A DNA stretch of 64,000 bases from Candidatus Omnitrophota bacterium. GTDB lineage: Bacteria > Omnitrophota > Gorgyraeia > Gygaellales > Profunditerraquicolaceae. Both the position numbers and the translations under genes were made by a program. Below the pieces are notes generated by a model. It saw nothing but the letters and a program-made list of their open reading frames with translations. It was not told the origin of the DNA and searched no databases. Location: contig JAGVER010000007.1 of the NCBI GenBank assembly GCA_020058085.1, forward strand, positions 7,969 through 71,968. The letters are read 5' to 3'. Every line of letters begins with the position of its first letter. Position 1 is the stretch's first letter. Of the stretch, positions 6,413 to 64,000 are shown piece by piece.

Positions 6413-6417
6413 ATAAA

Positions 6418-9161: not shown

Positions 9162-9275
9162 TCTTAAGGGCCTTTTAGATAAAATTTATACGGCTAGTTT
9201 ACCAAACTCCAAGGATTTACATTATGATGGCTCAGTAGTTAGATAAGTATAAAGATTAAAAGAGGAGGTAAGGTT

Positions 9276-9404: not shown

Positions 9405-9419
9405 TTGAGGAGTCTCTAA

Positions 9420-10646: not shown

Positions 10647-10806
10647 ACCTCCCCTTAAAAATGGCGTTATGAAATTAGACGAGTAAGAAGAAAATAGAAT
10701 TGAGTAAATTAAAAAATAGTATATAATTATTATGTTAACAATTTCATAGTTTAGTATGGCGGGAACAACTTTTCAAAGAGATTATTAGACAAAATGGAGG
10801 TGGAAG

Positions 10807-11094: not shown

Positions 11095-11181
11095 AACCAG
11101 GGAAATACCAAGAAATACCTGACTCATTGTCTGCGGTATAATTATCGATAGTATTTTTGAGATATGAATAGTGGAGGAGAG

Positions 11182-16434: not shown

Positions 16435-16441
16435 GGTTATC

Positions 16442-39280: not shown

Positions 39281-41461
39281 ATGCCGCAAGAGAGCGCAAT
39301 AACTTTAGAGATAATTCGCGAAGGCGATATTCTTAAGATGAGTGTCTCTGAACATAGAGAGCTTTCCGCTACATTGAGGCATTACAGCCAGCATAAGGTC
39401 GATTTCTCGGAAGTCGATAAGCTCTGCCACGAAGTTACCTTGCTTTTGAATAAGCCTGACCTTAGCGACCCATCGCTTTCGAAAAGCCTAGAAAAAACAG
39501 CCCATGCACTCTGGGATCATTTACTTACGCGTTCGGTCAAAGAAAAGCTTCGCCAGAGTTTAAATTATAACTTACTTCTTGAGATTGATGAAGAGTTGAT
39601 TTTTATCCCTTGGGAGCTTCTCTACGATGGTGATAATTTCTTATCTCTTAGTTTTAACCTCGGGCGGTTAGTGAGGACCCAATCTAAAGCTCCGTCTCTC
39701 GATTACCGCAGTTTAAGCCACGTATTTAAGATGCTCGTCTTGGCTAATCCTACCAATGACTTAAAGGCTTCGTATTTTGAAGGATTAAATATCAGAAATC
39801 AGTTCGACCGCAAACATCGCAATATCCGCATTGATTTTAAATCTACCAATATTGATAAGCTATATGTAAAGAAAAATATCTGTGACTATGATATTGTGCA
39901 TTTTGCCGGACACTGCGAGTATGGCTATCATAATACTAAGGAGAGCGGATGGGTATTAAGTGATGGAAATTTTAGTGTTCAGGATATTCTCAGGCTCGGA
40001 TCAGGGTCATCACTTCCAACATTAATATTTAGCAATGCCTGTCATTCCGCACCTTTATCAAAAGAGGGTTTAATCGATAGGGATTACCAGAGGAAAAATT
40101 ATTCTCTTGCCGGCGCGTTCTTATTCTCCGGAGTGCGCCATTATATCGGGTCGATAAGGAAGATCGAGGATACAGCGAGCTTGGCTTTTGCAAAAGAATT
40201 TTACCATAATTTAACGCTAGGTAAATCTTTGGGCGCTAGTCTGCGTTTAGCTAGGCTTAGATTAGTTAAGGATTATGGCATTTCTTCGATGCATTGGGCA
40301 AATTATCTGCTTTATGGCGATCCCGGTTTTATTCTTTTTAAACCAAAGCCGAATACTAAGTCTAAGAAAAAAATAGTTTTACCTAAAAAATGGCTCATTC
40401 GATCACTCTTAATATCGCTATTGACGATTGCATTAATATCTCTGTATTTTTTGCTCCCGACTATCAATCCAAGTGCCTATATTCTATTTTTAAAGTCAAA
40501 GGCGCTTTTTGCTAAAGGGGCTAACCAAGAGGTTATAACTATAGGTAAAAACATTATTGCCAAGGATAAGAATTTCTTGGATATTTATCCTATACTTGCA
40601 GATACTTATCATAAGCTAGGGGATAGGGATAATGCAATCAAATATTATTTTGATTATGTGCTTGTTGCCCAGAAGATGAACGATAGCAAGCATCTCGCAG
40701 CTGCCTATATATCTATTGGTTGGTTTTATCATTTGGACGGGGAATATAGAAAAGCCAAGGAATTTTATGATAAAGCGCTTAATTTGAGCAGAAAGCTCAA
40801 AGATAAGTTAAATGAGGCAGTGGCACTTAGGAAACTGGCAGTCTGGAATATCGATAATAACAATAATGATTTAGCATTGGAGTTGCTTATTAAGAGTTCC
40901 GAGATCAATCGCCAGAGGCAGCATCTTAACGCGTATCGTTATAATCTTGCTTGTGATTATTTTGATATAGGTTTGGTTTTTAGCAATAAGAACGATTTTG
41001 CTGCTGCTGAAGAGTTTTATCGTAAAAGCCGTAAGCTTTTTGAGAAGGTTAACCTTAAAAACGAGCTAAGTGATTATTATTTCAATTTAGGTGAACTTTA
41101 CTCTTTTGAGAAGCAATATGAAAAAGCGCTGGTTTCTTATCTTACTGGCCTAAAAATAGACCGGGATCAGGGAAATAAAAGGAGCCTAGCTTCAGATTAT
41201 AATATGATCGGAGAGCTCTACCTGGAGATGGATAGATTTATTGAGGCTGAATCCAATTTTAACCAGGCGTTAACTATCTCTGAGGAGATCGGATCTCGCC
41301 CAGGTATAGCCGGGACTTATTATAATCTAGGCATTTTGTATAAAAAACTAGGGAGAAAGAATAGGTCTAAGGAAAATCTACGTAAGGCGCAGGAGATTTA
41401 CGGGGTTATTGATCCCTCAGCTTATGAAGAGACAAAAAAAGAGATATTAAGCTTAGATTAA
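39281..41461 (+). CDS. CHAT (caspase-like) protease domain - TM helix - TPR repeat protein
   Basis: VHFAGHCEY (His) and LIFSNACHSA (Cys) dyad; basic stretch plus TM helix WLIRSLLISLLTIALISLYFLL; about 8 TPR-like repeats at the C-terminus. Confidence 0.75.
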   Translation: MPQESAITLEIIREGDILKMSVSEHRELSATLRHYSQHKVDFSEVDKLCHEVTLLLNKPDLSDPSLSKSLEKTAHALWDHLLTRSVKEKLRQSLNYNLLLEIDEELIFIPWELLYDGDNFLSLSFNLGRLVRTQSKAPSLDYRSLSHVFKMLVLANPTNDLKASYFEGLNIRNQFDRKHRNIRIDFKSTNIDKLYVKKNICDYDIVHFAGHCEYGYHNTKESGWVLSDGNFSVQDILRLGSGSSLPTLIFSNACHSAPLSKEGLIDRDYQRKNYSLAGAFLFSGVRHYIGSIRKIEDTASLAFAKEFYHNLTLGKSLGASLRLARLRLVKDYGISSMHWANYLLYGDPGFILFKPKPNTKSKKKIVLPKKWLIRSLLISLLTIALISLYFLLPTINPSAYILFLKSKALFAKGANQEVITIGKNIIAKDKNFLDIYPILADTYHKLGDRDNAIKYYFDYVLVAQKMNDSKHLAAAYISIGWFYHLDGEYRKAKEFYDKALNLSRKLKDKLNEAVALRKLAVWNIDNNNNDLALELLIKSSEINRQRQHLNAYRYNLACDYFDIGLVFSNKNDFAAAEEFYRKSRKLFEKVNLKNELSDYYFNLGELYSFEKQYEKALVSYLTGLKIDRDQGNKRSLASDYNMIGELYLEMDRFIEAESNFNQALTISEEIGSRPGIAGTYYNLGILYKKLGRKNRSKENLRKAQEIYGVIDPSAYEETKKEILSLD

Positions 41462-41559: not shown

Positions 41560-41644
41560 AAGTGTAAATTGACATTTTGACAATTTGGTATTTTGACCTA
41601 TGGCTTTGGCTTTTGGAGCCAAACCATGGTCAACTGACCTACTG

Positions 41645-41735
41645 AAAAGGCAAACTAGCAGTAATGCTGGGGCGCAAAACTTCCGGCCCTGCACTAATTT
41701 TTGAGATTAGCGCAGGGCAGCGGAGTTGCCAAAAG
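41645..41735 (+). promoter_or_regulatory. Candidate c-di-GMP-I (GEMM-I) riboswitch aptamer
   Basis: AGGCAAAC, then hairpin CUAGCA-GUAA-UGCUGG (GNRA loop), GGCGCAAAAC, a long P3 hairpin (CUUCCGGCCCUGCACUAAU...AUUAGCGCAGGGCAGCGGAG), and GUUGCC. Parallels the remembered Vc2 aptamer: GGGCAAAC..GAAA..GACGCAAAGC..P3..GUUACC. Confidence 0.6.
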
Positions 41736-42257: not shown

Positions 42258-42689
42258 ATGAAGAAAAACACCATATTTATTTTGATTTTAGTCTCCATTA
42301 TCTCGCTGCTCTTTAATACTAATGTTAAGGCAGATTATGAAGGGGATGAGTATATTGATTTTGGCGAAATTAAGAGGTTACCGGTTGTGAATCTAGATAA
42401 GGTTCCTTATGGGCAAAAAGCAATTAACAAGCTTGATAGGGGAGTAATTAATGCCGCGACATTCTGGCTGGAGGTCCCTGCTGAAGTTGCCAAGGTATCT
42501 AATGAACAGGATCCACTTATGGGCGTTTCAGTTGGGGTTGTTCATGGTTTAGTTGCTAGTGTTTTTCGCGCCGGTTCAGCGGTTTTCGACACAGTTACTT
42601 TCTTTGCTCCGCCTTACGATAAACCGGTAGTTAAACCTGAATACGCTCTTAATCGTGCTGATAGGGAGATAAAAGAGCTTTTCTGGTAG
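42258..42689 (+). CDS. Secreted protein resembling the exosortase-system-associated TIGR04073 family
   Basis: Signal peptide; KLDRGVINAATFWLEVPAEV matches the remembered KLxRGxxNxxxGWxExP signature. Confidence 0.55.
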   Translation: MKKNTIFILILVSIISLLFNTNVKADYEGDEYIDFGEIKRLPVVNLDKVPYGQKAINKLDRGVINAATFWLEVPAEVAKVSNEQDPLMGVSVGVVHGLVASVFRAGSAVFDTVTFFAPPYDKPVVKPEYALNRADREIKELFW

Positions 42690-42752: not shown

Positions 42753-42801
42753 CGTTAGATTTACCTGCCTCTTACGTCTATTATTGTAGGAGGTGGTAAA
42801 G

Positions 42802-44379
42802 ATGAAGAAAGGAATGTATTTTTGGAGTGGTAGTATCTTCTGTTTTTTGTTTATGGCCGGGTCTTTGTGCTGGGCTGGTGATAGTTGGCAGGATATAGGA
42901 AAAGAGTTGTTAAATGCAAAAGCCCTCCTTATCAATCCGATTAACCCTAAAATTATCTATGTAGGTACAGATAGGGGTATATTTAAGTCTGAAGATGCGG
43001 GAAATAACTGGAGAAATATATTCTTAACTAAAGGTGACAAGAAGACGGTAAACCTGTTGATCTTTGATCTTAAGGGTAGCAATAGTATATATGCTGCTAC
43101 AGGTTCAGGGTTATTTTATAGCTCCAATAATGGCTCGAAGTGGAAGAGGGTATTTAGAGGAAAGAATGATCTTGAAGCCGATTGTTTGGCTCTGGCTATT
43201 CTGCCCAGTGGTATGTATTTAGGAACGAGGCAGGGGTTATTTACGAGCCAGGATAAAGGGCGTTCTTGGCATAAAGAATCAGGCAAATTAGGCAATTCTA
43301 AAATATTTAACATTGTATACTCTTCTCAAGATCAAGCCTCTCTCTATATTGCTTCTGCAGATGGGGTATTTAAAAGTATTAATTCTGGTAAAGTCTGGGA
43401 AAGAATTTTTGTGGCTCATCTTACGGAGAAGAGTAAAGAAGTTGATAACGGGTTTGAGGATAATGATCAGGACAAAGAAGTAAAAGTTTCTGAGATTAGA
43501 TACCTGGCAGTTGACCCGAATAATCCAAAGTATTTATATCTAGCTACCAGCCGCGGGATTTATGAAAGTAAGGATGGTGGTATAAGTTGGGAGATTTTTC
43601 CTACATTTGGATTACTTAGCCGAGATTTGTATTTTTTGTTGTTTTCAAGACAATCAGAGTTTTATTGTATAGGTAAATCCGGAATTTTTACCTATCAGGA
43701 TTCTGCTTGGCAAGAATTATCCTTTACCCTTAGCTCAAGCCAGATTAATTTTATAACTTTAGATAAGGATGCTTATCTATACGCTTGTGCGGAGAAAGGA
43801 TTATTTAAGTTAGGATTAGGCCATAGCTATAATTTTGCGAGAGCTGATACTCTCACAGGATATTTTAAAGATGAACCCAATATCGGAGAGGTCCAGAAGG
43901 CTGCTATTAAATACGCTGAAGTTGATCCGGAGAAGATAATGCGCTGGAGAAAACAAGCAGCTAAAAAAGCATGGTTGCCGCAGTTAAGCGCTAACCTCGG
44001 CAGAAATACTACTGATCTTTGGCATTGGGAGGGAGGGTCTACTATTAAAGTAAGTGATGATGAATTAAGGCGTGGGAGGGATAGCTTGGATTGGGATCTG
44101 GGTTTAAGTTGGGATTTAAGTGAGCTTATTTGGAGTACTGATCAGACTTCAATAGACGTGCGTTCAAAGCTTATGGTAGAACTGCGTAATGATCTCTTGG
44201 ATGAGGTAAACAAGATATACTTTGAGCGTATCCGCGTTAAGATGGAGCTGGATAATTTATCTATTGAAGATAGAAAGAAGCGTTTTGAAAAAGAATTGCG
44301 CCTAAGAGAGTTAACTGCTTCAATTGACGCCCTTACGGGAGGGTATTTTTCGCAACAACTTGCCAAGAAGAAAACCTAA
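42802..44379 (+). CDS. Secreted BNR/Ycf48-like beta-propeller repeat protein with a charged C-terminal domain
   Basis: Signal peptide; at least 5 repeats of the G(I/L)(F/Y)xSxDxGxxW type (GIFKSEDAGNNW, GLFYSSNNGSKW, GLFTSQDKGRSW, GVFKSINSGKVW, GIYESKDGGISW). Confidence 0.6.
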   Translation: MKKGMYFWSGSIFCFLFMAGSLCWAGDSWQDIGKELLNAKALLINPINPKIIYVGTDRGIFKSEDAGNNWRNIFLTKGDKKTVNLLIFDLKGSNSIYAATGSGLFYSSNNGSKWKRVFRGKNDLEADCLALAILPSGMYLGTRQGLFTSQDKGRSWHKESGKLGNSKIFNIVYSSQDQASLYIASADGVFKSINSGKVWERIFVAHLTEKSKEVDNGFEDNDQDKEVKVSEIRYLAVDPNNPKYLYLATSRGIYESKDGGISWEIFPTFGLLSRDLYFLLFSRQSEFYCIGKSGIFTYQDSAWQELSFTLSSSQINFITLDKDAYLYACAEKGLFKLGLGHSYNFARADTLTGYFKDEPNIGEVQKAAIKYAEVDPEKIMRWRKQAAKKAWLPQLSANLGRNTTDLWHWEGGSTIKVSDDELRRGRDSLDWDLGLSWDLSELIWSTDQTSIDVRSKLMVELRNDLLDEVNKIYFERIRVKMELDNLSIEDRKKRFEKELRLRELTASIDALTGGYFSQQLAKKKT

Positions 44380-52826: not shown

Positions 52827-53828
52827 GTGAATATTTTCAAAAAGATACTAGCGGTATTTTTAAGAGTTGGTATAAGTGCTATTCTTTTAGTCCTGCTTTT
52901 TAAATTCAACAAAATAGATCTTCATAAGCTCTTAATTGATATAAAAGGAGCGGATAAGGTGCTTTTGGCTGTAGGATTTCTGATTTTTTTTATTGTTTAT
53001 CTCCTTGGTTTTCTGCGCTGGCAGATGTTGCTTAAGTCCGCAGGTATAAATATTCCTTTAAAGAGGCTGGCTATCTCATTCTCCGGAGGAGTTTTCTTCA
53101 GTATTTTTCTCCCTTCAACTATAGGCGGCGATCTTGTAAGAGCTGCTGACCTCGCAGGGCATACCCAAAAGACTAAAGAGGTGATTGCTACTGTCTTCCT
53201 TGATAGATTAAGCGGATATATCGGTCTGGTTATTGTGGTTATCTTGGCACTTTTATTCGCTAAGGGAATGGTAGAGGATAAGGTTGTTTTATCATCGGTA
53301 ATTGTAATTATCGCGGTATTGGCTTTGGTCATCTTGGTTCTTTTTAATAGCTTTATTTATTCAAGGATCACCAAGTTTCTTAGTACCCCCGGAGCAGGTA
53401 GGATAAAGGAGATGATTAAGGGGCTGCATCACGAAATACATATCTTTCGAAATCACAGGAAGATGATTTTGGGTAATCTATTTATATCTTTTATGATTCA
53501 GGTTATTGCGCCGGTAAGTGTTTATTTTATCGCGCTATCACTAGGGATACAGATTGATCTTATCTATTATTTTATCTTTCTGCCGATAATCGGAGCGATT
53601 ACGCTGCTTCCTGTCGCTATAGGCGGGCTTGGGTTGCGGGAGAGTCTTTTTGTGGTTTATTTTGCCAAGGCAGGCGTCGTAAAGCAGTTAGCTATAGCGA
53701 TGTCTCTTCTCTCTTTCGCCTTTATCATAATCTACGGGGCATTGGGGGGCCTTATTTATGTCCTTACAGTACGTCATCGATGGGTGCAACATAACGCATC
53801 ACCCCAAGTTCATAGAAAACACGCCTAA
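52827..53828 (+). CDS. Flippase-like / lysyl-phosphatidylglycerol-synthase TM-region family membrane protein
   Basis: GTG start; about 8 TM segments with the GGDLVRA motif typical of UPF0104-type proteins. Confidence 0.55.
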   Translation: MNIFKKILAVFLRVGISAILLVLLFKFNKIDLHKLLIDIKGADKVLLAVGFLIFFIVYLLGFLRWQMLLKSAGINIPLKRLAISFSGGVFFSIFLPSTIGGDLVRAADLAGHTQKTKEVIATVFLDRLSGYIGLVIVVILALLFAKGMVEDKVVLSSVIVIIAVLALVILVLFNSFIYSRITKFLSTPGAGRIKEMIKGLHHEIHIFRNHRKMILGNLFISFMIQVIAPVSVYFIALSLGIQIDLIYYFIFLPIIGAITLLPVAIGGLGLRESLFVVYFAKAGVVKQLAIAMSLLSFAFIIIYGALGGLIYVLTVRHRWVQHNASPQVHRKHA

Positions 53829-54240
53829 AAAATCCTCTGATTCCAGAGCTGATCTTATTGAACTTATCAGGATAAAAAGGTTATGCGGGAGCGAAAATAA
53901 CAGGGTTTGGATTGTTTTCGATGGATATTCCGATCCTTCCCTGGATAACTTAAGCAGTAGTAATTTAAATATTATATTTTCTCGTAATCAGAGTGCGGAT
54001 GAGAAGATAAAGAAATTCTTGGAATTGTCTGATAATGCCAAGAATATTGTCGTAGTCTCCGATGATAAAGAGATAATTTTTTTTGCCAAGGCGTACAGGG
54101 CCCGCGCAATTAGTGTTGAGGAGTTTATCGGGGATAAAGTCAGGCATCGGGGAGTTAATCATGATCCAGGGGAGAGTAAGATTGGGTTCAGCGCAATGCA
54201 TAAGATTAATCAGGAGTTGAGAAAACTGTGGCTAAAATAA
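53758..54240 (+). CDS. NYN/YacP-like predicted RNA-binding nuclease
   Basis: YVIDGCNITHH start and VVSDDKEI motif resemble YacP (Rae1-like); 71-nt overlap with the upstream ORF makes the start uncertain. Confidence 0.55.
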   Translation: MSLQYVIDGCNITHHPKFIENTPKKSSDSRADLIELIRIKRLCGSENNRVWIVFDGYSDPSLDNLSSSNLNIIFSRNQSADEKIKKFLELSDNAKNIVVVSDDKEIIFFAKAYRARAISVEEFIGDKVRHRGVNHDPGESKIGFSAMHKINQELRKLWLK

Positions 54241-55007
54241 TTAACCCCAAAGAGAATTTCATCAAGTTTTTAGGCACGGCAGGCGCTCGCTTTGTGATGA
54301 TTGAGCAATTACGCGCTTCAGGAGGTATCTGGATATCGTATAAAGGTACTAATGTATTAGTTGATCCCGGGCCGGGAAGTATCGTGCGTTGTTCGGCATC
54401 CAAGCCAAAGTTAAATCCCGCTAAATTAGATGGTATAATTTTAACTCATAAACATCTAGACCACGCCAATGATATTAATGTTATGATTGAAGCGATGACT
54501 GAAGGCGGTTTTAAGAAAAGAGGAGTAGTTTTCTGCCCGAATGATGCCCTAAATGAAGATTCTATAATTTTAAAATACCTGCGGAATTTTCCCGCGAGAA
54601 TTGAGATATTAAAAGAAAGGCATAATTATAGGGTGGGAAGCTTGTCATTCGCGACTTCTATGCGGCATCTTCATACTGCGGAGACTTATGGGGTAAAGTT
54701 TAAGTTTGGCAGGGCTACTTTCGCTATTCTTACAGATACAAGGTATTTTAAAGAGTTAGCAAGCTTTTATAAGGTTGGCCTATTAGTTATCGCTGTGGTA
54801 TTTCTTAAGCCTAGGCCGGGGATAGATCACTTGTGCTTAGCTGACGCGGAAGAAATTATAAAGGTAGCTAGGCCTAAAAAAGTTATACTCACGCATTTTG
54901 GTATCTCTATGCTTAAGGCTAAGCCGCATCTTCAGGCAAGGCTTTTATCTAAAAGAACCGGCATTGAGGTAGTGGCGGCCTTTGATGGGATGACTTTGGA
55001 TCTATAA
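54228..55007 (+). CDS. MBL-fold metallo-hydrolase
   Basis: LTHKHLDHAND (HxHxDH) motif. Confidence 0.75.
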   Translation: MAKIINPKENFIKFLGTAGARFVMIEQLRASGGIWISYKGTNVLVDPGPGSIVRCSASKPKLNPAKLDGIILTHKHLDHANDINVMIEAMTEGGFKKRGVVFCPNDALNEDSIILKYLRNFPARIEILKERHNYRVGSLSFATSMRHLHTAETYGVKFKFGRATFAILTDTRYFKELASFYKVGLLVIAVVFLKPRPGIDHLCLADAEEIIKVARPKKVILTHFGISMLKAKPHLQARLLSKRTGIEVVAAFDGMTLDL

Positions 55008-55079
55008 AGTTCTTGACTTAAGCCTATATTTATGATAAAGTTATGAAAATAAGGCGTCATAAACCAAAGGAGGTGGAGG

Positions 55080-55757
55080 ATGAGTAGTTGGCAAGTAGTC
55101 TTGTTGGAACCAGCTAGAATTGTTCTTGCCCAGATCGGCCAGTTTTTAGTGAATATTTTGTTAGTGATTGTTATTCTCATCATCGGTTGGATTATCTCTA
55201 AGGTGATCAAATCTATAGTTACCAAGAGCTTGAGAGCTATAAAGCTCGATGAGCTCTCTGATCGTATTGAGTTAGAGGCTTTACTTGAAAAAGGTGGCAT
55301 AAGTTATTCTCTATCGGAATTAATAGGGTTAATCTGTTATTGGCTGGCAATCTTAGTTACTTTCATGGTTGCTATAAATGCTGTAGGATTAACTATTGCC
55401 GCAGATCTCTTGAATAAGGTAGTCCTTTATATACCTAACGTTGTTGCCGCAGTATTTATTTTGATCTTAGGTATGTTCGCAGCTACTATTTTAAAAAATA
55501 TGGTTGTGACCGCGGCTAATAATGCCGGCCTTAATCAGGGTAAACTTCTTGGAAAAGTTGCCGAATCCATTGTAATTGCCTTTGCGATATTCGTAGGTTT
55601 AGAGCAGTTAAGGATCGGTATTCAAATAACCCAACTTACTATAAGTATAGTCTTAGGTAGTATGGGATTTGGTTTGGCTCTTGCTTTTGGTTTAGGTTGC
55701 AAGGACCTTGCGGGAAAGTTTATGGGTGAATTTATTGAAAAGTTGAAAAAGAAATAA
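55080..55757 (+). CDS. Membrane protein with repeated TM-helix motifs (mechanosensitive-channel-related conserved TM helix type)
   Basis: 225 aa, 4-5 TM helices, internally repeated pattern; GGAGGTGGAGG RBS. Confidence 0.5.
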   Translation: MSSWQVVLLEPARIVLAQIGQFLVNILLVIVILIIGWIISKVIKSIVTKSLRAIKLDELSDRIELEALLEKGGISYSLSELIGLICYWLAILVTFMVAINAVGLTIAADLLNKVVLYIPNVVAAVFILILGMFAATILKNMVVTAANNAGLNQGKLLGKVAESIVIAFAIFVGLEQLRIGIQITQLTISIVLGSMGFGLALAFGLGCKDLAGKFMGEFIEKLKKK

Positions 55758-55785
55758 AATTGGAGTTTTTGTAGGTTTTAAGATG

Positions 55786-55828
55786 CCCCGCACTTTCTAA
55801 ACAAAAAAATAGAGGGTGCGGGGTTTTT
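55786..55828 (+). terminator. Rho-independent terminator
   Basis: ccccgcactttct...agagggtgcgggg stem (two G-U pairs) followed by ttttt. Confidence 0.7.
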
Positions 55829-55830
55829 AA

Positions 55831-55886
55831 AAAGGCACCCAAATATATTTGAGTATTTGGTGCCCATAAGTATGGGAGATTTATTC
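55831..55886 (+). promoter_or_regulatory. GGCACC leader motif, copy 2
   Basis: aaaGGCACCCAAATA-tatttgag-TATTTGGTGCC-CATAAGTATGGGAGAT, ending 6 nt before ATG 55887; distal stem pairs differ from copy 1 in a compensatory way. Confidence 0.6.
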
Positions 55887-56480
55887 ATGAACAAAGGTGA
55901 AGCTTTGAAACAGGATCTAGGTATGCGAGTAGTAAAATTATGCATAATTGTTGGGGTCCTGTTTCTTTTTAGATACCTGGTTTCCTATATTAAGGTTTTT
56001 GACGAGATGAGGTTCTTTGATACCCGTTTAACTGTTTTAGATATTGCTATTGCGGTAGTTAACGCGATAATCCTCGTCTTTTTAATTAAATTCGGGTTTT
56101 ATTTAAGTAAGCATTATGAAGTAGTCAATTTTCCCAAGGCTATGATTATCTCTAAATGGTTAGTTATTCTTATTGCTGCCATTGTTGCTTATCAGACTTA
56201 TTACCGTATAGCTCGTAGTCTTTTACGTCGGCATGATATTGATGCTTATAATGTTGTATTTCTTTGTGTAACTTTGCTTATTCTGGTAAGGCTCGGGGTT
56301 TTAGTATTTTCTAATATGGAAAAGATAACAGACTTATTTACCGGTAAGATCAAGGTTGATCTAAAAGAGCCTGGGGTTGATGAAGACTTAGTGAAAGAGG
56401 GTCTCAAGTGTAAATCTTGCGGTAAGTCACTAGAAAAAGATATGGCATTTTGTTCAAAATGCGGGACTAAGGCTGCCTAA
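55887..56480 (+). CDS. Membrane protein with a C-terminal zinc-ribbon
   Basis: Four TM segments; CKSCGKSLEKDMAFCSKCGTKA. Start placed at the ATG following the GGGAGA of the leader motif. Confidence 0.5.
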   Translation: MNKGEALKQDLGMRVVKLCIIVGVLFLFRYLVSYIKVFDEMRFFDTRLTVLDIAIAVVNAIILVFLIKFGFYLSKHYEVVNFPKAMIISKWLVILIAAIVAYQTYYRIARSLLRRHDIDAYNVVFLCVTLLILVRLGVLVFSNMEKITDLFTGKIKVDLKEPGVDEDLVKEGLKCKSCGKSLEKDMAFCSKCGTKAA

Positions 56481-56509
56481 ATTCTTTTTATATTTATATT
56501 AGGAAGTAA

Positions 56510-56543
56510 AATACGCCCAAGATTACTCTTGGGCGTATTTATT
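56510..56543 (+). terminator. Rho-independent terminator
   Basis: aatacgcccaaga-ttac-tcttgggcgtatt, 13-bp perfect stem, then tatt. Confidence 0.65.
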
Positions 56544-56687
56544 AAAAGGCACCAAAATATATTGTAGTGGCACCCAATTTTAATGGCACCTTGCCCTAAA
56601 GGATGGGCAAGTGTCCCGCCTTCTGCGGGAATGAATTGGTGCCCTATCCGTATGGGGTTTGGTGCCTATAACTATAGGAGTTAAAAG
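56543..56687 (+). promoter_or_regulatory. Expanded, nested GGCACC leader structure upstream of feoAB (candidate riboswitch or regulatory RNA)
   Basis: Outer stem GGCACCAAA (56547-56555) / TTTGGTGCC (56657-56665); inner stem GGCACCCAATT (56568-56578) / AATTGGTGCC (56633-56642); internal hairpins cttgccc-taaaggat-gggcaag and tcccgc-cttct-gcggga. Both 3' arms are followed by yATAnnnTATrGGrG tails, the last holding the SD. Confidence 0.6.
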
Positions 56688-56921
56688 ATGAAAAAAGTTG
56701 TTTCTTTGGTACAATTAAAAGCAGGGAATAAAGCTAAGGTTTCTGATATTCTGGGAGGTGGCAACCTAGAGAGTAAATTAATGAATATGGGGATATATAA
56801 GGGTAAAGAAGTCTCTAAGTTAAGCCATATTGGGCTTAGGGGGCCGGTTGTAATTAGAGTGGGCAGGACAATCCTGGCTTTGGGCCATGGTATAGCGGAA
56901 AAGATTATTGTAGAGGCCTAA
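56688..56921 (+). CDS. feoA: Ferrous iron transport protein A
   Basis: 77 aa SH3-like FeoA pattern (LVQLKAGNKAKV...G..V.V); upstream of feoB. Confidence 0.85.
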   Translation: MKKVVSLVQLKAGNKAKVSDILGGGNLESKLMNMGIYKGKEVSKLSHIGLRGPVVIRVGRTILALGHGIAEKIIVEA

Positions 56922-58652
56922 ATGATAAAAAAAATATACTTAGTAGGGAACCCAAATGTAGGTAAGAGTGTAGTTTTTTCGCGTCTTACCGGAGTGCATG
57001 TTGTCTCTTCTAATTATCCTGGGACAACAGTAGGTTTTACCAAAGGATTCTTGCAATTAGGCGATAGTAGGGTAGAGGTCTTAGATTTACCCGGGGTCTA
57101 TTCTTTGGAATCTACTTCCAGTGCTGAAGAGGTAACTCTCTCTTTGCTAAAAGAACACCCTAAAGATGAGATCATAGTTATAAATATAATTGATTCAACT
57201 AATTTAGAGAGAAATTTACTTTTAACACTACAGTTAATCGAAGAAGGTTTTCCGGTTATCGCCAGTTTGAATATGTGCGACGATGCCGGGCATAGAGGTG
57301 TTAATATTCATTACCAGAGATTAGAAGAGTTACTTAATATTCCGATAATTCCAACCTGTGCTGTAACCGGCGTGGGCATCAAACTCTTGATTGAACGGAT
57401 GCAGGAGGTAGGAGTTAAGTCGCGGGTTAAGCTTAATCATGAAGAGCGCTGGAAAGAGATAGGCCGTATTATTGAGGAGGTTCAGCACTTAGAACATCGG
57501 CATCACAGTCTAAGAGAGATATTAGAAGACGCATCTGTGCGTCCTTTAACTGGCCTATTGATGGCAGCAGGAGTTATTTATGCTTCATTTAAGGTCGTGC
57601 GTTTTATAGGGGAATCAATAATAAGCAGGATAACTGATCCGCTATTCTTCAATTTCTATCAGCCTATTCTTGAGAAGATGGTTTTGGGTTGGCAGGAGGA
57701 TGGTTTCTGGTTCCATCTTTTAATCGGAGATCTAATCAATGGAAAGATTGACTTTAAACAATCTCTAGGTATTTTAACTACAGCTCCTTATATTGAGTTT
57801 GGCATGGTTTTGCCCTATATAGTCTCATTTTATTTTATTCTAAGCCTTTTGGAGGATATAGGTTATCTGCCGCGGCTTGCGATTTTGTTGGATAATCTCT
57901 TGCATCGTTTGGGCCTTCATGGTTTTGCGGTTATACCGTTAATGTTAGGTTTTGGATGCAATGTCCCGGGGATTTTATCTACTCGAGTCTTGGAGTCAAA
58001 GCGGGAGAGGTTTATCGCTTCAACCCTAATCTCCATCGGTATACCTTGTGTGCCTCTGCAGGCGATGATCTTTGGTTTGTTAGGCAAGTTTGGGGGATTT
58101 TATGTAAGCGGTGTATATGCAGTTTTATTTTCTTTGGTTATAATATTAGGGGTAATCTTAAACCGCTTATTAAAAGGCTATAGTCCAGAATTCATACTGG
58201 AGATTCCGCCTTATAGATTTCCTCCGTTAACGGTATTATTCAAGAAACTCTATTTCCGAATTAAGGGTTTTATCATTGAAGCTGTGCCGATTGTTTTGAT
58301 CGGGGTCCTCTTTATAAATATCTTTTTATATTTTAAGCTTTTTGATTTTGTAACCGGCATCTTTGCCCCGGTGGTTACAGGGTTATTTGGGTTACCTAAA
58401 GAGGCTGTAGTCTCTTTAGCAATCGGTTTCTTTAGAAAAGATGTGGCGGTAGGAATGCTCATGCCTTTAAATCTTACTGCCAAGCAATTATTTATTGCCG
58501 CGACTCTATTAGCTGCTTCTTTTCCTTGTGTTGCCACATTTGTAGTTTTATGGAAAGAGCTGGGTGTTAAATACTTGATAAAAGCAACTTTGGTTATGAT
58601 TTTAGTGAGTATCATTGCCGGGACTTTTTTAAATTTTGTAATCCTACGCTAA
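56922..58652 (+). CDS. feoB: Ferrous iron transport protein B
   Basis: G-domain GNPNVGKS, DLPG, NMCD; polytopic C-terminal gate domains. Confidence 0.9.
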   Translation: MIKKIYLVGNPNVGKSVVFSRLTGVHVVSSNYPGTTVGFTKGFLQLGDSRVEVLDLPGVYSLESTSSAEEVTLSLLKEHPKDEIIVINIIDSTNLERNLLLTLQLIEEGFPVIASLNMCDDAGHRGVNIHYQRLEELLNIPIIPTCAVTGVGIKLLIERMQEVGVKSRVKLNHEERWKEIGRIIEEVQHLEHRHHSLREILEDASVRPLTGLLMAAGVIYASFKVVRFIGESIISRITDPLFFNFYQPILEKMVLGWQEDGFWFHLLIGDLINGKIDFKQSLGILTTAPYIEFGMVLPYIVSFYFILSLLEDIGYLPRLAILLDNLLHRLGLHGFAVIPLMLGFGCNVPGILSTRVLESKRERFIASTLISIGIPCVPLQAMIFGLLGKFGGFYVSGVYAVLFSLVIILGVILNRLLKGYSPEFILEIPPYRFPPLTVLFKKLYFRIKGFIIEAVPIVLIGVLFINIFLYFKLFDFVTGIFAPVVTGLFGLPKEAVVSLAIGFFRKDVAVGMLMPLNLTAKQLFIAATLLAASFPCVATFVVLWKELGVKYLIKATLVMILVSIIAGTFLNFVILR

Positions 58653-58699
58653 GATATTCTGTATGAGGGAGTCTACGAAAAAAGGTTAGGTAATTACTA

Positions 58700-60310
58700 A
58701 TGAGAAATCTATTACCCGAAGAAATACTTGCTTTAGAAATCGTCCGTAGCATTACTAACAGCGTCAAGGGAGAAGCATCGCAGGGCATAAATAATACAGC
58801 TATAAATTGGCAAAATTTCAAGGAAATTCTTAGTTACCATGATTTAGCGCCTTTTGCATATCTCTTCTTAAAGAATACTGATATAAAGATTCCGCAGGAT
58901 CTCCACGAACTACTTAAGAGTACCTATTATTTTTCCCTGATGCACAATCAGAGGTTCTGGTCGGAATTCTTACGCATCTTAGGTGTCTTCACTGATAAGG
59001 GCGTAGATTTAGTACCGATAAAAGGAACGGCACTACTTGAAGAGCTTTATGAGGATCTGCCGATAAGGCCGATGGTAGATATAGACCTCTTGGTGCGCCG
59101 CAATGATCTTAAAAAGGCGGAGAATATTTTCGTTGGTTTAGGTTATCAAAAGGAACTTCTTGGCTTGAAGGAGCAGTACTGGTTGAATAACCAATACCAT
59201 ATTAGTTTTCATGGCAAGGAGATAAAAGATCTTCCTTTGGTGGAATTACACTGGGGGCTTGATTATCCTAGACAAAGACGCATTATTTATCCTGAGCTGT
59301 GGGCAAGGATAAGAGAGGTTGAGCGCGGTGGGCATAAAATAAAATTGCTTTCACCGGAGGATAACTTTTTAAGCCTTACCTTGCATAGTCGTAGGTTTGG
59401 CAAGGCGCTAGGGTTTAAAAGTGTCTATGACGCCGTATTACTGTTAAAGAAATACGGCGATAGCTTTGACTGGGATTATTGTTTTGAGATTTGCCGGAAA
59501 TACCAGCTTTATGCTACGCTATATTTCATGCTCTGTCAGATGGAATTTTTATCAGGGATTGATACCCTAGAGAAGGTATTGGGGGAATTTAAGCTCTCGC
59601 GTACTAAGAAGAAAAAGATTCAGGATTTTATCCACAATAATAGTTTTACCACAGATGTTTCTAGCGGCAAGAAGCTATATTTAGAGTCTCACTTTTTATT
59701 ATATGATAGCATCTGGGAGCCGATCAATTATATCCTTAATATCCCTAAGGAGCAGTTTGCCAAATACTATTGCTTATCGTCTTATACTAAGAAGGCGGAT
59801 TTCTTTTACCACTTTAGATTTCTCTACATTCCTCTTAGGTTAGTATCAAACCTATTCCGCAGAGATAGCTTTAAAATAGGCCAAAGAGAGCAGAGTAATT
59901 TAGGAAGTGATACATATCTTTTTGAGGCTACTGGATATAGCATGTGGCCATTTCTCGTGCCCGGAGATAAAATAATCGCTAAAATAATCGCCATTGATAA
60001 TCTAAAATCCGGTGATATAATACTCCATAATGAAGAAGGGCAAGTAATTTGTCACCGCTTGATAAAGAAAACTAAGATTGACGATAAGTATTCTTTGTAT
60101 GTGCGCGGAGACAATTCCTGTTCGATCGAGAGAATACCTCAAAAAGATTATTGTGGAAAAGTCATTGGTGTATTAAGAAAAAATAGGATGATTAGCTTGT
60201 CAGGGCCTGGGAGTCACATGATAGGGAGAATAATTGTTTTTTTTGCTCCTTGTGTAAGTTACGGAATGAGGATAATCAAATCTATTGCAAAAAATATTAA
60301 AGGAGGATAG
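58700..60310 (+). CDS. Uncharacterised-nucleotidyltransferase (NTP_transf_5-like) domain fused to an S26/S24-type signal-peptidase-like domain
   Basis: N-terminal ~380 aa (PIKGTALLEELY...MVDIDLLV) resembles the nucleotidyltransferase family seen in RiPP loci. C-terminal GYSMWPFLVPGDKII...CHRLI...RGDNS...GKVIG matches the SipW/Sec11-type Ser/His peptidase pattern. Confidence 0.6.
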   Translation: MRNLLPEEILALEIVRSITNSVKGEASQGINNTAINWQNFKEILSYHDLAPFAYLFLKNTDIKIPQDLHELLKSTYYFSLMHNQRFWSEFLRILGVFTDKGVDLVPIKGTALLEELYEDLPIRPMVDIDLLVRRNDLKKAENIFVGLGYQKELLGLKEQYWLNNQYHISFHGKEIKDLPLVELHWGLDYPRQRRIIYPELWARIREVERGGHKIKLLSPEDNFLSLTLHSRRFGKALGFKSVYDAVLLLKKYGDSFDWDYCFEICRKYQLYATLYFMLCQMEFLSGIDTLEKVLGEFKLSRTKKKKIQDFIHNNSFTTDVSSGKKLYLESHFLLYDSIWEPINYILNIPKEQFAKYYCLSSYTKKADFFYHFRFLYIPLRLVSNLFRRDSFKIGQREQSNLGSDTYLFEATGYSMWPFLVPGDKIIAKIIAIDNLKSGDIILHNEEGQVICHRLIKKTKIDDKYSLYVRGDNSCSIERIPQKDYCGKVIGVLRKNRMISLSGPGSHMIGRIIVFFAPCVSYGMRIIKSIAKNIKGG

Positions 60311-60313
60311 GAG

Positions 60314-60592
60314 ATGAAAGACATAGCATTACGTAAGGACAAAAATATAGTGACAAGGACTATTGGCGGTGAAACTATACTTCTGCCTATTTGTAAGAGT
60401 TCTGACGATCTAAACTGTATTTACACCTTAAATTCTGTCGCCTCGGAGGTATGGAATTTGATTAATGGTAAAAGAAAACTTTCAGAGATTAAGGTGGAAG
60501 TGCTTAAAAAATTTGATACTACACCTAAGGAAGCTGACAAGGAAATGAAAGCATTCCTTAATGAATTAAAGAAAATTAAGGCGATTGTATAA
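60314..60592 (+). CDS. PqqD-family protein (RiPP recognition element candidate)
   Basis: 92 aa; YTLNSVASEVWNLINGKRKLSEIKVEVLKKFDTTPKEADKEMKAFLNELKK fits the PqqD pattern. Confidence 0.75.
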   Translation: MKDIALRKDKNIVTRTIGGETILLPICKSSDDLNCIYTLNSVASEVWNLINGKRKLSEIKVEVLKKFDTTPKEADKEMKAFLNELKKIKAIV

Positions 60593-60600
60593 GAATCGGT

Positions 60601-61716
60601 ATGATTGTAAGTACTAGGAATGAAGGTAGTTTTTATCAAGGGTTGCTTACAAGAATAGGGCATCATCCCTGGTTTGGTCAGATAGAGCTCACTTATCGTT
60701 GTAATCTTAATTGTGTTCACTGTTATGCCAAAAATGCGGGAAACTGCCAGTCAAAAAAAGGTGAATTAACCACTAAAGAGTGGAAACAGATATTCGCTAT
60801 AATTCGCGGTGCGGGGTGTCTGAATTTGACCTTTACCGGTGGTGAACCGTTGTTACGCGAAGACTTTCTAGAACTATATTCTTATGCCAAAGAGAGTGGA
60901 TTTATTATCACTCTGTTTACTAATGGAAGCTTACTCACCAAAAAAGTCATTGATTTTCTTGAGAAATTTCCTCCTAAAGCAATTGAAATCACTCTTAATA
61001 GTATAACTAAAAATACATATGAAGCGATTAGCCAAGTAAGAGGATCATATAGTAAGGCAATGTTCAATATTAAGGCTTTAGCCAGAGCTAAGGCTCCCTT
61101 AATCATAAAATCAAACTGCCTTAAGCAAAATAAAGATGAAATCGTCAAAATAAAGAAGTTTACCGAAGATTTACTTGGCAAGCGTAAGGACGGTAGACAT
61201 TATTTTAAATATGATAAGATGGTTTATCCGCGTTTAAACGGAGATAGAACCCCTTGTAATTATCGACTTTCTTTTAAAGAAATAAAGCAATTAATGAAAG
61301 AAGATGCTGATATGTGGCAGGAATATCAAAAGGGCTTACAAGATATTATCACTGTTAGTAGCAGGGATAATATCTTTCTCTATCAATGTAGTAGCTGGAT
61401 AAAACAATTTTTTATTAATCCTTATGGCGAATTGAAATTTTGTGAATTTTCCAATAAATTCAGTGGAAATTTGAAGAAGGAGTCTTTTAAAGATATTTTT
61501 TACCGGACATATTCTGCTGTTACGCAGGAAAAGTTCAAAACTAACTCTAAGTGTAGAGATTGCCGCTTGCGTCCATTTTGTCCTTATTGTCCGGCTAAAG
61601 CGTATTTGGAGACAGGTAAAGAGGAAGCACCGGTCCAGTATTATTGTAAATTGGCCGGAGAATTGCACAAGGAGATGCAGAGGGCACGTAAAAAGCATGC
61701 GAGAAATCCGATATAG
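60601..61716 (+). CDS. Radical SAM / SPASM-domain protein, paralog 1
   Basis: YRCNLNCVHCY (CX3CX2C); C-terminal Cys clusters CSSW...GELKFC and CRDCRLRPFCPYCPAKAY. Confidence 0.85.
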   Translation: MIVSTRNEGSFYQGLLTRIGHHPWFGQIELTYRCNLNCVHCYAKNAGNCQSKKGELTTKEWKQIFAIIRGAGCLNLTFTGGEPLLREDFLELYSYAKESGFIITLFTNGSLLTKKVIDFLEKFPPKAIEITLNSITKNTYEAISQVRGSYSKAMFNIKALARAKAPLIIKSNCLKQNKDEIVKIKKFTEDLLGKRKDGRHYFKYDKMVYPRLNGDRTPCNYRLSFKEIKQLMKEDADMWQEYQKGLQDIITVSSRDNIFLYQCSSWIKQFFINPYGELKFCEFSNKFSGNLKKESFKDIFYRTYSAVTQEKFKTNSKCRDCRLRPFCPYCPAKAYLETGKEEAPVQYYCKLAGELHKEMQRARKKHARNPI

Positions 61717-62782
61717 GAAATTTAGTTTGCAGACGCATAAAAAAGGATGGTCTTTGAAAAGGCCGAATACTTGTCAATTTGAATTAACTTTCCGTTGTGG
61801 TTTACATTGCAAGCATTGCTATACTGATTGTTATAACAGGCCAGCGTATTTTGCCAAAGAATTAACCACCAAACAAATAAAATTAATTTTGGATAAGATT
61901 TACGACTCTGGTGTTATTTGGATATGTTTTACCGGAGGTGATCCGTTTATACGTAAAGATTTTCTGAAGATTTACAAATACGCCAAGAAAAAAGGCTTTC
62001 TGGTCTCTATATTTACTAGCGGTTATTCTATTACGGAAGAAATTATACGAGACCTTAAAAAATCACCGCCTTTTGTAATTGAATTAACTTTAAATTCGGT
62101 AACTAAAGATCTCTATGAGAGGATTTCACAGGTTCGTGGTTCTTTCAGAAAGGCGATGCAAGCGATAGAGATGATTGTCGACGCAAAGATTCCTTTAAAG
62201 ATTAAGACACAAGTAACTAATGATAATTTAAAGGAGCTTAACGCAATAAAAAGCTTTGCTAAAGACAAGAAAATAAATTTTGTTCCGGATTATTATTTAT
62301 ATCCAAGGTTAGATGGCGATTCCGCACCCTGTGCTCTGCGAATTACCCCAAAAGAAATAATAAAGCTCGGTGTTAAATTACCTTTAGATTGTTTAACTAG
62401 ATTTCGTAAAAAAAACAACCATCTTTTTCGCTGCGCCGTTGACAGCGGAGACGGTTTTAATGTCGATCCCTACGGAAATATTTTTCCCTGTCTAGCTATT
62501 AGGGAGCCAAAGTTTAGTTTATTCAAATACAGCATTGCCTCAGCCATGGGTAAGACGGCATTTTTTTTAAGAAATAGTTTATTTAAGGATAACTCCAAAT
62601 GCAAAATATGTAAAGATAAGCAAAGCTGTTATTGGTGCCCGGGTAAAGCCTATCTTGAGAAGGGGCAAATGGGAGTGCCAATAGAATACTATTGTGAATT
62701 GACAAAAGAGCTAACAGGATTAGTAGGGGAAAGAATTAATGATCGCGAAGAAGGCCAATTACTTCTGGCATCGGTTATGTAA
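61697..62782 (+). CDS. Radical SAM / SPASM-domain protein, paralog 2
   Basis: FRCGLHCKHCY; C-terminal CAVD...GNIFPC and CKICKDKQSCYWCPGKAY; collinear with paralog 1. Confidence 0.85.
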   Translation: MREIRYRKFSLQTHKKGWSLKRPNTCQFELTFRCGLHCKHCYTDCYNRPAYFAKELTTKQIKLILDKIYDSGVIWICFTGGDPFIRKDFLKIYKYAKKKGFLVSIFTSGYSITEEIIRDLKKSPPFVIELTLNSVTKDLYERISQVRGSFRKAMQAIEMIVDAKIPLKIKTQVTNDNLKELNAIKSFAKDKKINFVPDYYLYPRLDGDSAPCALRITPKEIIKLGVKLPLDCLTRFRKKNNHLFRCAVDSGDGFNVDPYGNIFPCLAIREPKFSLFKYSIASAMGKTAFFLRNSLFKDNSKCKICKDKQSCYWCPGKAYLEKGQMGVPIEYYCELTKELTGLVGERINDREEGQLLLASVM

Positions 62783-63752
62783 GATTACTCAGGATAAAAA
62801 CATCCCTTTACGAGTGATGTTTGAACTTACTTATCGTTGTAATTTAAGATGCAAGCATTGTTATATACCATTCTCCTATAGAAATAAGAAAGAGCTCAAA
62901 ACCGAAGAGGTGTTTTCTATATTAGACCAGCTTAGTGATAGCGGATGTTTTTATCTGGGTTTTACTGGAGGAGAGCCGCTTATAAGAAAGGATGCGCTTA
63001 AGATCTTCAATTATGCGAAAAAGCGCGGTCTCCAAACTATAATAAACACCAATGCTTCGTTAATAACCAAAAGTCTTGCTTCTACAATAGCTCAGTTAGC
63101 TCCAAATAAAGTAGATATTACCTTACATTCTATGGATGCTAACTCTTTCGATAGAATTACCGGGGTTAAGGGCTCGTATAAAAAAGTATTTGCTGCAGTT
63201 GATTATCTGCATAAGGAAAATGTGCCCTTAGGATTTAAGACATGCCTATTGCGAGAAAATGAAAGCGAAATAAACAAAATCGGGCGTTTTGCCCGTTCCT
63301 TAGGAGCATTTTATCGTGTCGACAATTTACTTTCTTATCGGCTAGACGGATCGAGTGATCCATTCAAATATCGTGGTAGCCTAAAAGACAATACAAGGTT
63401 TTTAAAAACAAAATATCCAAGAGCTAATATTTCTAACAATCTTTTTTTCTGTGGTTCAGGAACAAGGCAAGCGGCAATTACTCCTAGTGGTGAATTAAAA
63501 ATATGTTTACTGATAAATTATCCAAAATTCAAAATTATTAATGAATCTTTTGCGAGTGCGTGGCGAAAATTATATCATTTAGTTAGAACCGTAAGTTCGT
63601 CTAAACGCCGTAGCTGTGCCAGCTGTAAAGTCGCGGCTTATTGTAAATGGTGTCCTGGGCGCTCTTGGCTTGCTGTTAGAGATTTCGTTAGTTGTGATCC
63701 TGAATTAAAGAATTTTGCTAGAAATAGAATTAATGTAGGAGATCTATGTTGA
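62739..63752 (+). CDS. Radical SAM / SPASM-domain protein, paralog 3
   Basis: YRCNLRCKHCY; C-terminal CGSG...GELKIC and CASCKVAAYCKWCPGRSW. Confidence 0.85.
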   Translation: MIAKKANYFWHRLCKITQDKNIPLRVMFELTYRCNLRCKHCYIPFSYRNKKELKTEEVFSILDQLSDSGCFYLGFTGGEPLIRKDALKIFNYAKKRGLQTIINTNASLITKSLASTIAQLAPNKVDITLHSMDANSFDRITGVKGSYKKVFAAVDYLHKENVPLGFKTCLLRENESEINKIGRFARSLGAFYRVDNLLSYRLDGSSDPFKYRGSLKDNTRFLKTKYPRANISNNLFFCGSGTRQAAITPSGELKICLLINYPKFKIINESFASAWRKLYHLVRTVSSSKRRSCASCKVAAYCKWCPGRSWLAVRDFVSCDPELKNFARNRINVGDLC

Positions 63753-64000
63753 AGTATACCAAGAAGCTATGTATAGCCGATACAATTATTGAAATTAAAA
63801 GCAGGTGGCCATTATTTGACTTGAGTCAAGAAAAAACAGATAAAATTGCTGCGGAGCGGTTTAATAACTTTTTTTATAATGGGAAAAGCAAGCCTGACAT
63901 ACATATTGATCTAGATATTAGTGCTAGATTGCCACGGCCCAAGGGTTACAAATTGTTATTTATCACGCATCATTTCCTAACGGGGCTTGAGAATTGGCAG
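63746..64000 (+). CDS. 5'-partial ORF continuing past the window end; unknown (possibly an HPr-kinase-like/ScmC-like accessory protein)
   Basis: ATG 63746 overlaps the upstream stop (ATGTTGA). 85 codons are open to the window edge. The N-terminal pattern Y..KLCIADTIIEIKSRWPL is reminiscent of HprK-related RiPP kinases, but this is weak. Confidence 0.4.
   Translation, partial: MLKYTKKLCIADTIIEIKSRWPLFDLSQEKTDKIAAERFNNFFYNGKSKPDIHIDLDISARLPRPKGYKLLFITHHFLTGLENWQ

Follow-up and report, generated by a model that had tools for sequence, protein, structure and literature searches.

Six tightly spaced genes on the + strand occupy positions 58700-64000 of a 64-kb window of a Candidatus Omnitrophota contig (open reading frame (ORF) listing). 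The window is the whole stretch of DNA that was analysed; all coordinates refer to it, and the gene block ends where the window ends. An earlier note on this DNA had described the block as resembling gene clusters for peptides made on the ribosome and modified after translation (RiPPs), with a RiPP recognition element (RRE), a peptidase-fused nucleotidyltransferase and three radical S-adenosylmethionine (rSAM)/SPASM enzymes. The features are as follows, with the evidence for each in brackets.

58700-60310, + strand: NTP_transf_5::peptidase fusion protein, 536 amino acids (aa), with an N-terminal NTP_transf_5 domain, a helical linker, a C-terminal Ser/His signal-peptidase-like domain and a terminal helix (ORF, Pfam and NCBIfam matches, AlphaFold model, fold matches)
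58799-59536, + strand: nucleotidyltransferase domain of the fusion protein, residues 34-279 (PF14907, invariant columns, fold matches)
59903-60199, + strand: peptidase domain of the fusion protein, residues ~402-500, a candidate leader peptidase (weak hidden Markov model (HMM) matches, motifs, fold matches)
60314-60592, + strand: PqqD-family protein, 92 aa, presumed leader-binding RRE (PF05402)
60601-61716, + strand: rSAM/SPASM enzyme 1, 371 aa (Radical_SAM match and SPASM Cys, orthologue tree, model)
61697-62782, + strand: rSAM/SPASM enzyme 2, 361 aa (Radical_SAM match and SPASM Cys, orthologue tree)
62739-63752, + strand: rSAM/SPASM enzyme 3, 337 aa (Radical_SAM match and SPASM Cys, orthologue tree)
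63746-64000, + strand: ScmC-like (HPr-kinase-like) protein, first 85 codons, with the P-loop part past the window end (translation, 46% identity to a homologue in related locus L001)

The five packed or overlapping genes described in the earlier note were all present as ORFs with operon-like spacing, and the further ORF reported to run off the window starts at 63746. Gaps of 3 and 8 nucleotides (nt) separate the first three genes, and the next three junctions overlap by 20, 44 and 7 nt. Because the gaps are tiny and the last three junctions overlap, the six genes look like one transcription unit. AGGAGG, a strong ribosome-binding site, lies upstream of the PqqD gene. Promoter-like sites in the block (27, with 23 expected from shuffled sequence) and terminator-like sites (8, with 5 expected) were at chance level and were not used as evidence.

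Related loci were picked by rSAM similarity only (enzyme 1 homologues from assemblies plus one genome per species, 80 loci). The non-redundant set comprised 82 loci, cited by number where they must be told apart. In the protein collection, enzyme 1 had 921 homologues at E ≤ 0.001. Genes of the 82 loci were counted by BLAST against the window proteins, so that the counts are lower bounds. PqqD was found in 76 of the 82 loci, a ScmC-like protein in 74, an S24/S26-like peptidase in 45, NTP_transf_5 in 27, and three or more rSAM genes in 26. The loci span Omnitrophota, Elusimicrobiota, Planctomycetota, Aminicenantes, Desulfobacterota, Chloroflexota, Nitrospirota, Methanocella and others. The association of these genes across loci is far beyond chance.

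The N-terminal domain of the fusion protein had been called NTP_transf_5-like, and PF14907 matched it far above the cut-off (E 7e-43, 147.4 bits, cut-off 31.2). K108-G109 and D127-x-D129 are invariant in 56 homologues of this domain; we take these KG and DxD motifs to be those of Pol-beta-type transferases. The C-terminal domain matched Peptidase_S24 (PF00717, 21.2 bits) and sigpep_I_arch (TIGR02228, 38.8 bits) below the cut-offs of 23.3 and 51.85. Its motifs are Ser414 in GYSMWP, His452-Arg453 and Gly470-Asp471-Asn472. GxSMxP and HR do not vary across the 20 homologues with the same fusion, and GDN is nearly invariant (at least 19 of 20). Together they are the Ser/His constellation of SipW, Sec11 and archaeal signal peptidases (family S26). 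An AlphaFold model of the fusion protein, built on an alignment, had a mean predicted local distance difference test score (pLDDT) of 87.8. Fold searches with the N-terminal half returned the nucleotidyltransferases LnuA, ANT(2'')-Ia and TM1012, and those with the C-terminal half returned the LexA C-domain, human SEC11A/C, SipA and SpsB. A sequence search of the PDB with the fusion protein found nothing at E ≤ 1. The S26-type peptidase of the earlier note is retained on motifs and fold, although the HMM matches are sub-threshold, and is narrowed to a Ser/His, S26B-like subtype (SipW/Sec11/archaeal).

The peptidase domain shares the SMxP Ser, the HR His, the GDN box and the fold of SEC11A/C, SipA and LexA-C with the S26B signal peptidases. 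It differs from them in having no N-terminal membrane anchor, in being fused behind a nucleotidyltransferase and in its presumed substrate, a RiPP leader. As the only protease in the cassette, the domain is a candidate leader peptidase. Peptidase and nucleotidyltransferase are separate genes in most related loci; they are fused in the window order in ~20 database proteins and in the reverse order in L014. The fusion homologue of L090 (10001-11586) looks split: two overlapping ORFs, of 481 and 82 aa, each match the peptidase domain, and a frameshift or an assembly error in that metagenome-assembled genome is suspected.

The 92-aa protein was above the Pfam cut-off for PqqD (PF05402, E 1.5e-11, 44.9 bits, cut-off 23.4), as had been proposed. 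It is 57-67% identical to the PqqD proteins that precede precursor genes in L001, L004, L007, L009 and L091. No N-terminal RRE was found in any of the three rSAM enzymes; since their radical SAM motif begins at residue 34, they have no N-terminal extension able to hold an RRE of their own.

The sixth gene belongs, by sequence comparison, to a ScmC/HPr-kinase-like family. The 85-aa fragment alone matched no model. Over 79 aa it is 46% identical to a protein of L001 (12162-13094) that has a precomputed PF27840:ScmC match and that scored 30.9 bits on TIGR04249, with a cut-off of 125. The family keeps a His, a GxSGxGK(T/S) P-loop and DD(R), as in HPr kinase, in 46-54 of 54 members from related loci. 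The best sub-threshold model matches of the ScmC-like proteins were HprK-related kinase B, ScmC and HPr(Ser) kinase.

All three rSAM enzymes matched Radical_SAM (Pfam) at 76-92 bits. Common to them are the CX3CX2C motif (C34/C38/C41) and the SPASM cysteines C263, C281, C318, C321, C327 and C330, plus a seventh Cys. The Pfam SPASM model was above cut-off in enzyme 1 only. The earlier description of three collinear rSAM enzymes with CX3CX2C near residue 30 and twin C-terminal Cys clusters is accurate, and the quoted Cys strings are present. A model of enzyme 1 (pLDDT 78.8) had the peptide maturases SkfB, SuiB, PqqE and anSME as its nearest solved folds. By sequence, too, enzyme 1 is closest, remotely, to SkfB, SuiB and PqqE, and the SkfB match (E 8e-15) covers the rSAM core only.

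Pairwise identity among the three window enzymes is 32-40%. In most of eight related loci (L001, L004, L007, L008, L009, L011, L091 and L093) each window enzyme has a counterpart that is 41-59% identical, and six of the eight have all three. Identity to the other two groups in those loci is only 28-40%. Each of the three groups has orthologues in at least six other loci. A phylogeny of the three paralogs had been proposed in the earlier note, and a neighbour-joining tree placed the window enzymes in three separate clades with orthologues from other loci. The single enzymes of simpler cassettes are nearest to groups 1 and 2 in this tree, and genuine ScmE falls outside. On sequence comparison, the three window enzymes represent old, conserved orthologue groups. 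Recent tandem triplication of an rSAM gene was considered and is ruled out by the orthologue tree. Because the enzymes fall into three separate orthologue clades, this branch of the family normally has three maturases in a row. The earlier view that such a row is unusual does not hold, given three or more rSAM genes in 26 of 82 loci and three conserved orthologue groups. Enzyme 1 orthologues directly follow the precursor gene in most of the closely related three-enzyme loci examined, and enzyme 2 orthologues are usually placed after ScmC. The window order is rSAM1-rSAM2-rSAM3-ScmC, whereas the commonest order in the close relatives examined is rSAM1-rSAM3-ScmC-rSAM2.

A precursor family adjoins the same genes in related loci. 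The small ORF that separates PqqD from the group-1 enzyme in L001 and L004 starts with MPRK(P/S)KFRP(R/E)ITRVKLNPEQAVL, and scanning for the motif revealed this leader in eight more loci. Searching the protein collection with a profile gave 1219 precursor-family proteins at E ≤ 10. The 120 matches listed were all unnamed or 'hypothetical' and had no Pfam domain. No Pfam or NCBIfam model matched the family, save for an insignificant 14.5-bit similarity to StsA. Statistics were taken on 119 short members among the matches listed. The leader consensus is M-x-RKPKFKPxITRVKLNPEQAVL; up to AVL it has 23 residues in 106 of the 119, and it is ~80% identical between members. The leader is followed by x-C-x-C-(Y/W/F)-x-x-G, with Cys at core position 2 in 119/119 and at core position 4 in 118/119. 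The remaining 40-70 residues of the core are hypervariable (~11% identity), with many Ser, Gly and Thr residues and 3-5 Cys in total.

With an iterated profile, for which the most divergent members served as seed, matching small ORFs were detected in ~73 of the loci. A more distant leader form reads KKxWxKPELxVLxRGxPEEAVLxxCK, and such ORFs usually lie between a single rSAM gene and ScmC. Among the 120 matches listed, 109 end in Ser and 11 in Thr; of 73 ORFs in the loci, 65 end in Ser and 6 in Thr, against a background of 10% for a terminal Ser in short ORFs of that DNA. Orthologous loci hold one to four precursor genes. In L093 the precursor directly follows ScmC (9213-9470), and in L010 and L090 precursors lie several kb from the enzymes.

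Two further observations concern precursors. L012-L016 and ~60 further loci carry, near 11000-11250, single-rSAM cassettes with a 45-70-codon ORF between rSAM and ScmC; the ORF has a PE(E/Q)AVLxxCK leader and a C-terminal Ser. These ORFs are candidate substrates for such cassettes, whose precursor the TIGRFAMs text is said to describe as unidentified. L001 also encodes three proteins (3099-3641, 6849-7520 and 7663-8253) in which an N-terminal PqqD domain and a linker precede the leader, KxPEIxKVKMQPEQAVL, and a Cys-rich core whose last residue is Ser or Thr. As judged from this domain order, the trio is a putative case of a recognition element fused to its own substrate.

The block is probably the enzyme set of a RiPP maturation cassette from a large family, mainly of Candidatus Omnitrophota and other anaerobic, mostly uncultured lineages, with the pathway outlined below and a precursor gene downstream. 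Genes, domains and catalytic motifs are intact, and the same genes recur in dozens of phylogenetically distant loci. The locus is a genuine member, with its genes intact, of a large branch of RRE-dependent rSAM/SPASM peptide pathways that is apparently uncharacterised. The RiPP-like character seen in the earlier note gains support from the precursor family beside the same genes in orthologous loci and from the fold of enzyme 1, which is that of peptide maturases.

PqqD-type RREs bind leaders and recruit rSAM/SPASM maturases, and SPASM maturases acting on Cys-containing cores most often form thioether links. In the proposed pathway, the stand-alone PqqD protein would bind the leader and hand the peptide to the three rSAM/SPASM enzymes. 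These would put radical cross-links on the core, with Cys thioethers favoured and each group probably making a different link; C-C, C-O and epimerising reactions would be equally possible for one or more of the three groups. The HPr-kinase-like ScmC would phosphorylate the C-terminal Ser. The NTP_transf_5 domain would add a further group to the phosphorylated C-terminal Ser, and the fused Ser/His peptidase domain would cut off the leader. Decoration of the C-terminal Ser is preferred because a ScmC-like kinase is near universal and precursors nearly always end in Ser or Thr.

This tailoring resembles that of phosphorylated and phosphoglycosylated lasso peptides (paeninodin, pseudomycoidin), whose clusters likewise have an HPr-kinase homologue, an NTP_transf_5-type nucleotidyltransferase, a PqqD-type RRE and a precursor ending in Ser (PMC8498205). 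In lasso peptide clusters, the HPr-kinase homologue phosphorylates the precursor C-terminal Ser with little regard for the remaining sequence, the nucleotidyltransferase then adds hexose to that phosphate, and such a nucleotidyltransferase is sometimes fused to the leader protease (PMC8498205). Unlike lasso clusters, the six window genes include no lasso cyclase and no transglutaminase-type B2 protease (Pfam/NCBIfam), so that the tailoring logic alone is held in common. The core-forming enzymes of the window are rSAM/SPASM proteins and its fused protease is Ser/His signal-peptidase-like; modification of Ser would follow by analogy.

Several points weigh against this reading. In most of the closest three-enzyme relatives examined, the precursor sits between PqqD and the group-1 enzyme, a slot that measures 8 nt here. 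The slot of simpler cassettes, between rSAM and ScmC, is here a 7-nt overlap of rSAM3 and ScmC. The ScmC fragment comprises residues 1-85, upstream of the His, P-loop and DD motifs, so that the kinase domain lies outside the window. In a sister contig (L087), a Peptidase_U32 gene and a 277-aa gene without an assigned family come after the fusion gene, in place of the PqqD and rSAM genes. Thioether formation, Ser phosphorylation or decoration, and leader cleavage are suggested by analogies, which are not results. No chemistry is transferable by homology, since no curated NCBIfam equivalog cut-off was reached.

No precursor was found in the whole 64 kb by TBLASTN, motif scan, and narrow and broad precursor profiles (best E 0.38 among 2993 six-frame segments), which extends the earlier statement that none is visible between feoB and the cluster. 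One explanation is an orphan or trans-acting cassette, which has lost its own precursor gene and either acts on precursors elsewhere in the genome or is decaying. The two closed canonical slots and the lack of a precursor in 64 kb fit such a loss, as does a gene order unlike the commonest one in the close relatives examined. The PqqD-rSAM block is also missing at the matching position of L087, so this region varies between close lineages. However, all six reading frames are intact and every catalytic Cys, Ser, His and Asp is conserved. Because the window end truncates the cluster, the precursor cannot be called absent, and precursors of relatives also lie after ScmC or several kb off (L093, L010, L090). 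We regard the orphan cassette as unlikely. Under the favoured reading, a precursor just past nt 64000 is plausible because relatives also have it right after ScmC (L093) or several kb away (L010, L090), and the substrate gene of this copy is probably downstream of nt 64000. An exact 41-mer from the window end had no match in GTDB representative genomes, and a scan of metagenomes gave two distant loci only.

L087 carries fusion protein P0242, 73% identical to the window fusion protein. Nucleotide identity between L087 and the window is 83% over 53336-56561 and 81.5% over 58686-60234. Within the fusion gene, identity is ~85% in the nucleotidyltransferase part and ~62% in the peptidase part, and it falls to noise past the stop codon. 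The ratio of nonsynonymous to synonymous substitution rates between window and L087 is 0.24 for the fusion and 0.07-0.13 for four neighbouring genes. As the L087 fusion gene is followed by the Peptidase_U32 gene, the fusion is not obligatorily adjacent to PqqD and rSAM genes. Close lineages differ in the block from ~60,000 on, as would be expected of an accessory and possibly competitive trait.

Peptidase_U32 and a ~280-aa protein without a Pfam match recur as a pair in or beside cassettes (L087 4976-6877, L091 11243-13169, L093 3-1028). A first reading, that L087 lacks the cassette entirely, was softened since this pair recurs inside cassettes (L091, L093); L087 probably does have a cassette, in another arrangement.

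At 59994-60021 (+ strand), within the fusion gene and ~290 nt ahead of the PqqD gene, is the region's best sigma-70-like match (11/12 with TG), which may be due to chance or may be an internal promoter. The match falls where fusion-gene identity to L087 begins to drop.

The favoured reading was also compared with characterised systems. The earlier note had likened the composition to the SynChlorMet (Scm) cassette. The likeness holds for the sixth gene, which is of the ScmC/HPr-kinase-like family, and fails for ScmD, ScmE and ScmF, whose models were far from reached. The window PqqD scored 30.0 bits on ScmD (TIGR04248), with a cut-off of 100 and 137.1 bits for the genuine ScmD of L081. The best window rSAM scored 84.9 bits on ScmE (TIGR04250) and 81.2 bits on ScmF (TIGR04251); the cut-off is 400 for both, and the genuine ScmE and ScmF of L081 scored 593.6 and 568.2 bits. 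The Scm cassette also combines a PqqD-family protein, rSAM/SPASM enzymes and a ScmC-type HPr-kinase-like protein, occurs in anaerobes and, like the window family, has an uncharacterised product. The window family differs in having up to three rSAM orthologue groups and often an S26-like peptidase and NTP_transf_5, which are fused in the window. L081 (Methanocella sp.) has both a genuine SynChlorMet cassette and, within 5 kb of it, a separate one of the window type (4540-11029 and 15195-17790). An opposite-strand precursor-like ORF in L081 (9133-9384) fits the general leader weakly (E 0.036).

The maturases SkfB, AlbA, StsB, PapB, CteB, SuiB and PqqE share an rSAM core with a 7-Cys SPASM domain, RRE dependence and Cys-containing cores with the window system. 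Unlike sactipeptide and ranthipeptide maturases, the window system has its RRE as a separate protein, three maturases per cassette and a precursor family unrelated to known ones. The AlbA, SkfB, StsB and PapB models scored 54-95 bits on the window enzymes, with cut-offs of 300-850. No cut-off was reached by the window proteins among curated sactipeptide, ranthipeptide, PQQ, mycofactocin and haem-type models.

It is quite unlikely that the locus falls in an already characterised class, as a SynChlorMet cassette proper or as the source of simply a sactipeptide or ranthipeptide product. Such a placement would fit the ScmC-family gene, the PqqD and SPASM composition, the weak sub-threshold similarity to the ScmD/E/F, AlbA, StsB, PapB and SkfB models, the Cys-rich cores in relatives and SkfB as the top fold match of enzyme 1. 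However, ScmD/E/F and the four maturase models are all far below their cut-offs, scores that already contradict family membership, and true ScmE is an outgroup in the tree. The precursor family has no Pfam or NCBIfam match, and no paper on the cassette or the leader motif was found in the literature searched. A thioether product would class chemically with sactipeptides and ranthipeptides, yet the gene family behind it would be a distinct one.

A non-peptide cofactor pathway, of the alternative haem or haem d1 type (AhbD/NirJ-like) or molybdopterin-like, is very improbable. AhbD and NirJ2 are the best NCBIfam matches by score, at 105-129 bits. However, these scores are a quarter of the cut-offs (500), and enzymes 2 and 3 match over the generic rSAM core only, with enzyme 1 matching NirJ2 over near its full length. 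The PqqD chaperone, the peptidase and the precursors adjoining orthologous loci favour a peptide substrate, and no haem or sirohaem genes lie nearby.

Beyond this copy, the family may form a RiPP class without a name yet, very common in Omnitrophota and other uncultured anaerobes and with >1,200 distinct precursors; we put this forward tentatively, at somewhat under even chances. Its products would have a fixed leader, a hypervariable Cys core cross-linked by up to three rSAM/SPASM enzymes, and a C-terminal Ser phosphorylated by ScmC and decorated by an NTP_transf_5 protein fused to the leader protease. If so, the combination of several radical cross-links and C-terminal phospho-decoration would make a peptide natural product of a new kind, and the long-missing substrates of ScmC-type cassettes would be identified. 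New peptide chemistry comes in large part from radical SAM/SPASM pathways, and this family is abundant yet without a curated precursor model. The comparison yields a precursor profile that locates the substrate genes of these cassettes, the prediction that kinase and nucleotidyltransferase, as a pair, act on the conserved C-terminal Ser, and three separable maturase orthologue groups for assigning individual reactions. The interest is mainly at the family level (precursor profile, C-terminal Ser, kinase/nucleotidyltransferase pair) rather than in anything unique to the window copy. In the literature available without subscription, no paper was found on the cassette, ScmC or the leader motif, nor any experimental study of the family. 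Two metagenome surveys of biosynthetic gene clusters mention Omnitrophota only in general terms, and a compendium of RiPP rSAM enzymes contains none of the relevant terms.

The window proteins were found once each in a large protein collection, on one 142,786-bp contig, and their nearest relatives are named Candidatus Omnitrophota. feoA and feoB lie directly upstream of the block, and farther upstream are genes of ordinary chromosomal type, for an H+-pyrophosphatase, a phosphoenolpyruvate carboxykinase and a type II/IV secretion ATPase. The feoAB stretch (56562-58685) is missing from L087. feoA-feoB is thus an insertion or a deletion relative to L087, directly upstream of a cassette whose three rSAM enzymes each carry the radical SAM Cys motif and the SPASM Cys set; this placement may reflect iron supply or coincidence.

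In the whole window (1-64000), all ORFs of at least 120 aa, nested ones left aside, are on the + strand, and GC skew is positive throughout 50-64 kb. A CHAT-domain protease-like protein of 726 aa with a long TPR array is encoded at 39281-41461 (+ strand). Just downstream is a c-di-GMP-I-GGC variant riboswitch aptamer at 41640-41734 (+ strand; RF03167, 61.6 bits, gathering score 59). The aptamer lies ~520 nt upstream of a 143-aa ORF without a Pfam match (42258-42689), which is followed by a BNR/sortilin-like ORF of 528 aa (42793-44379).

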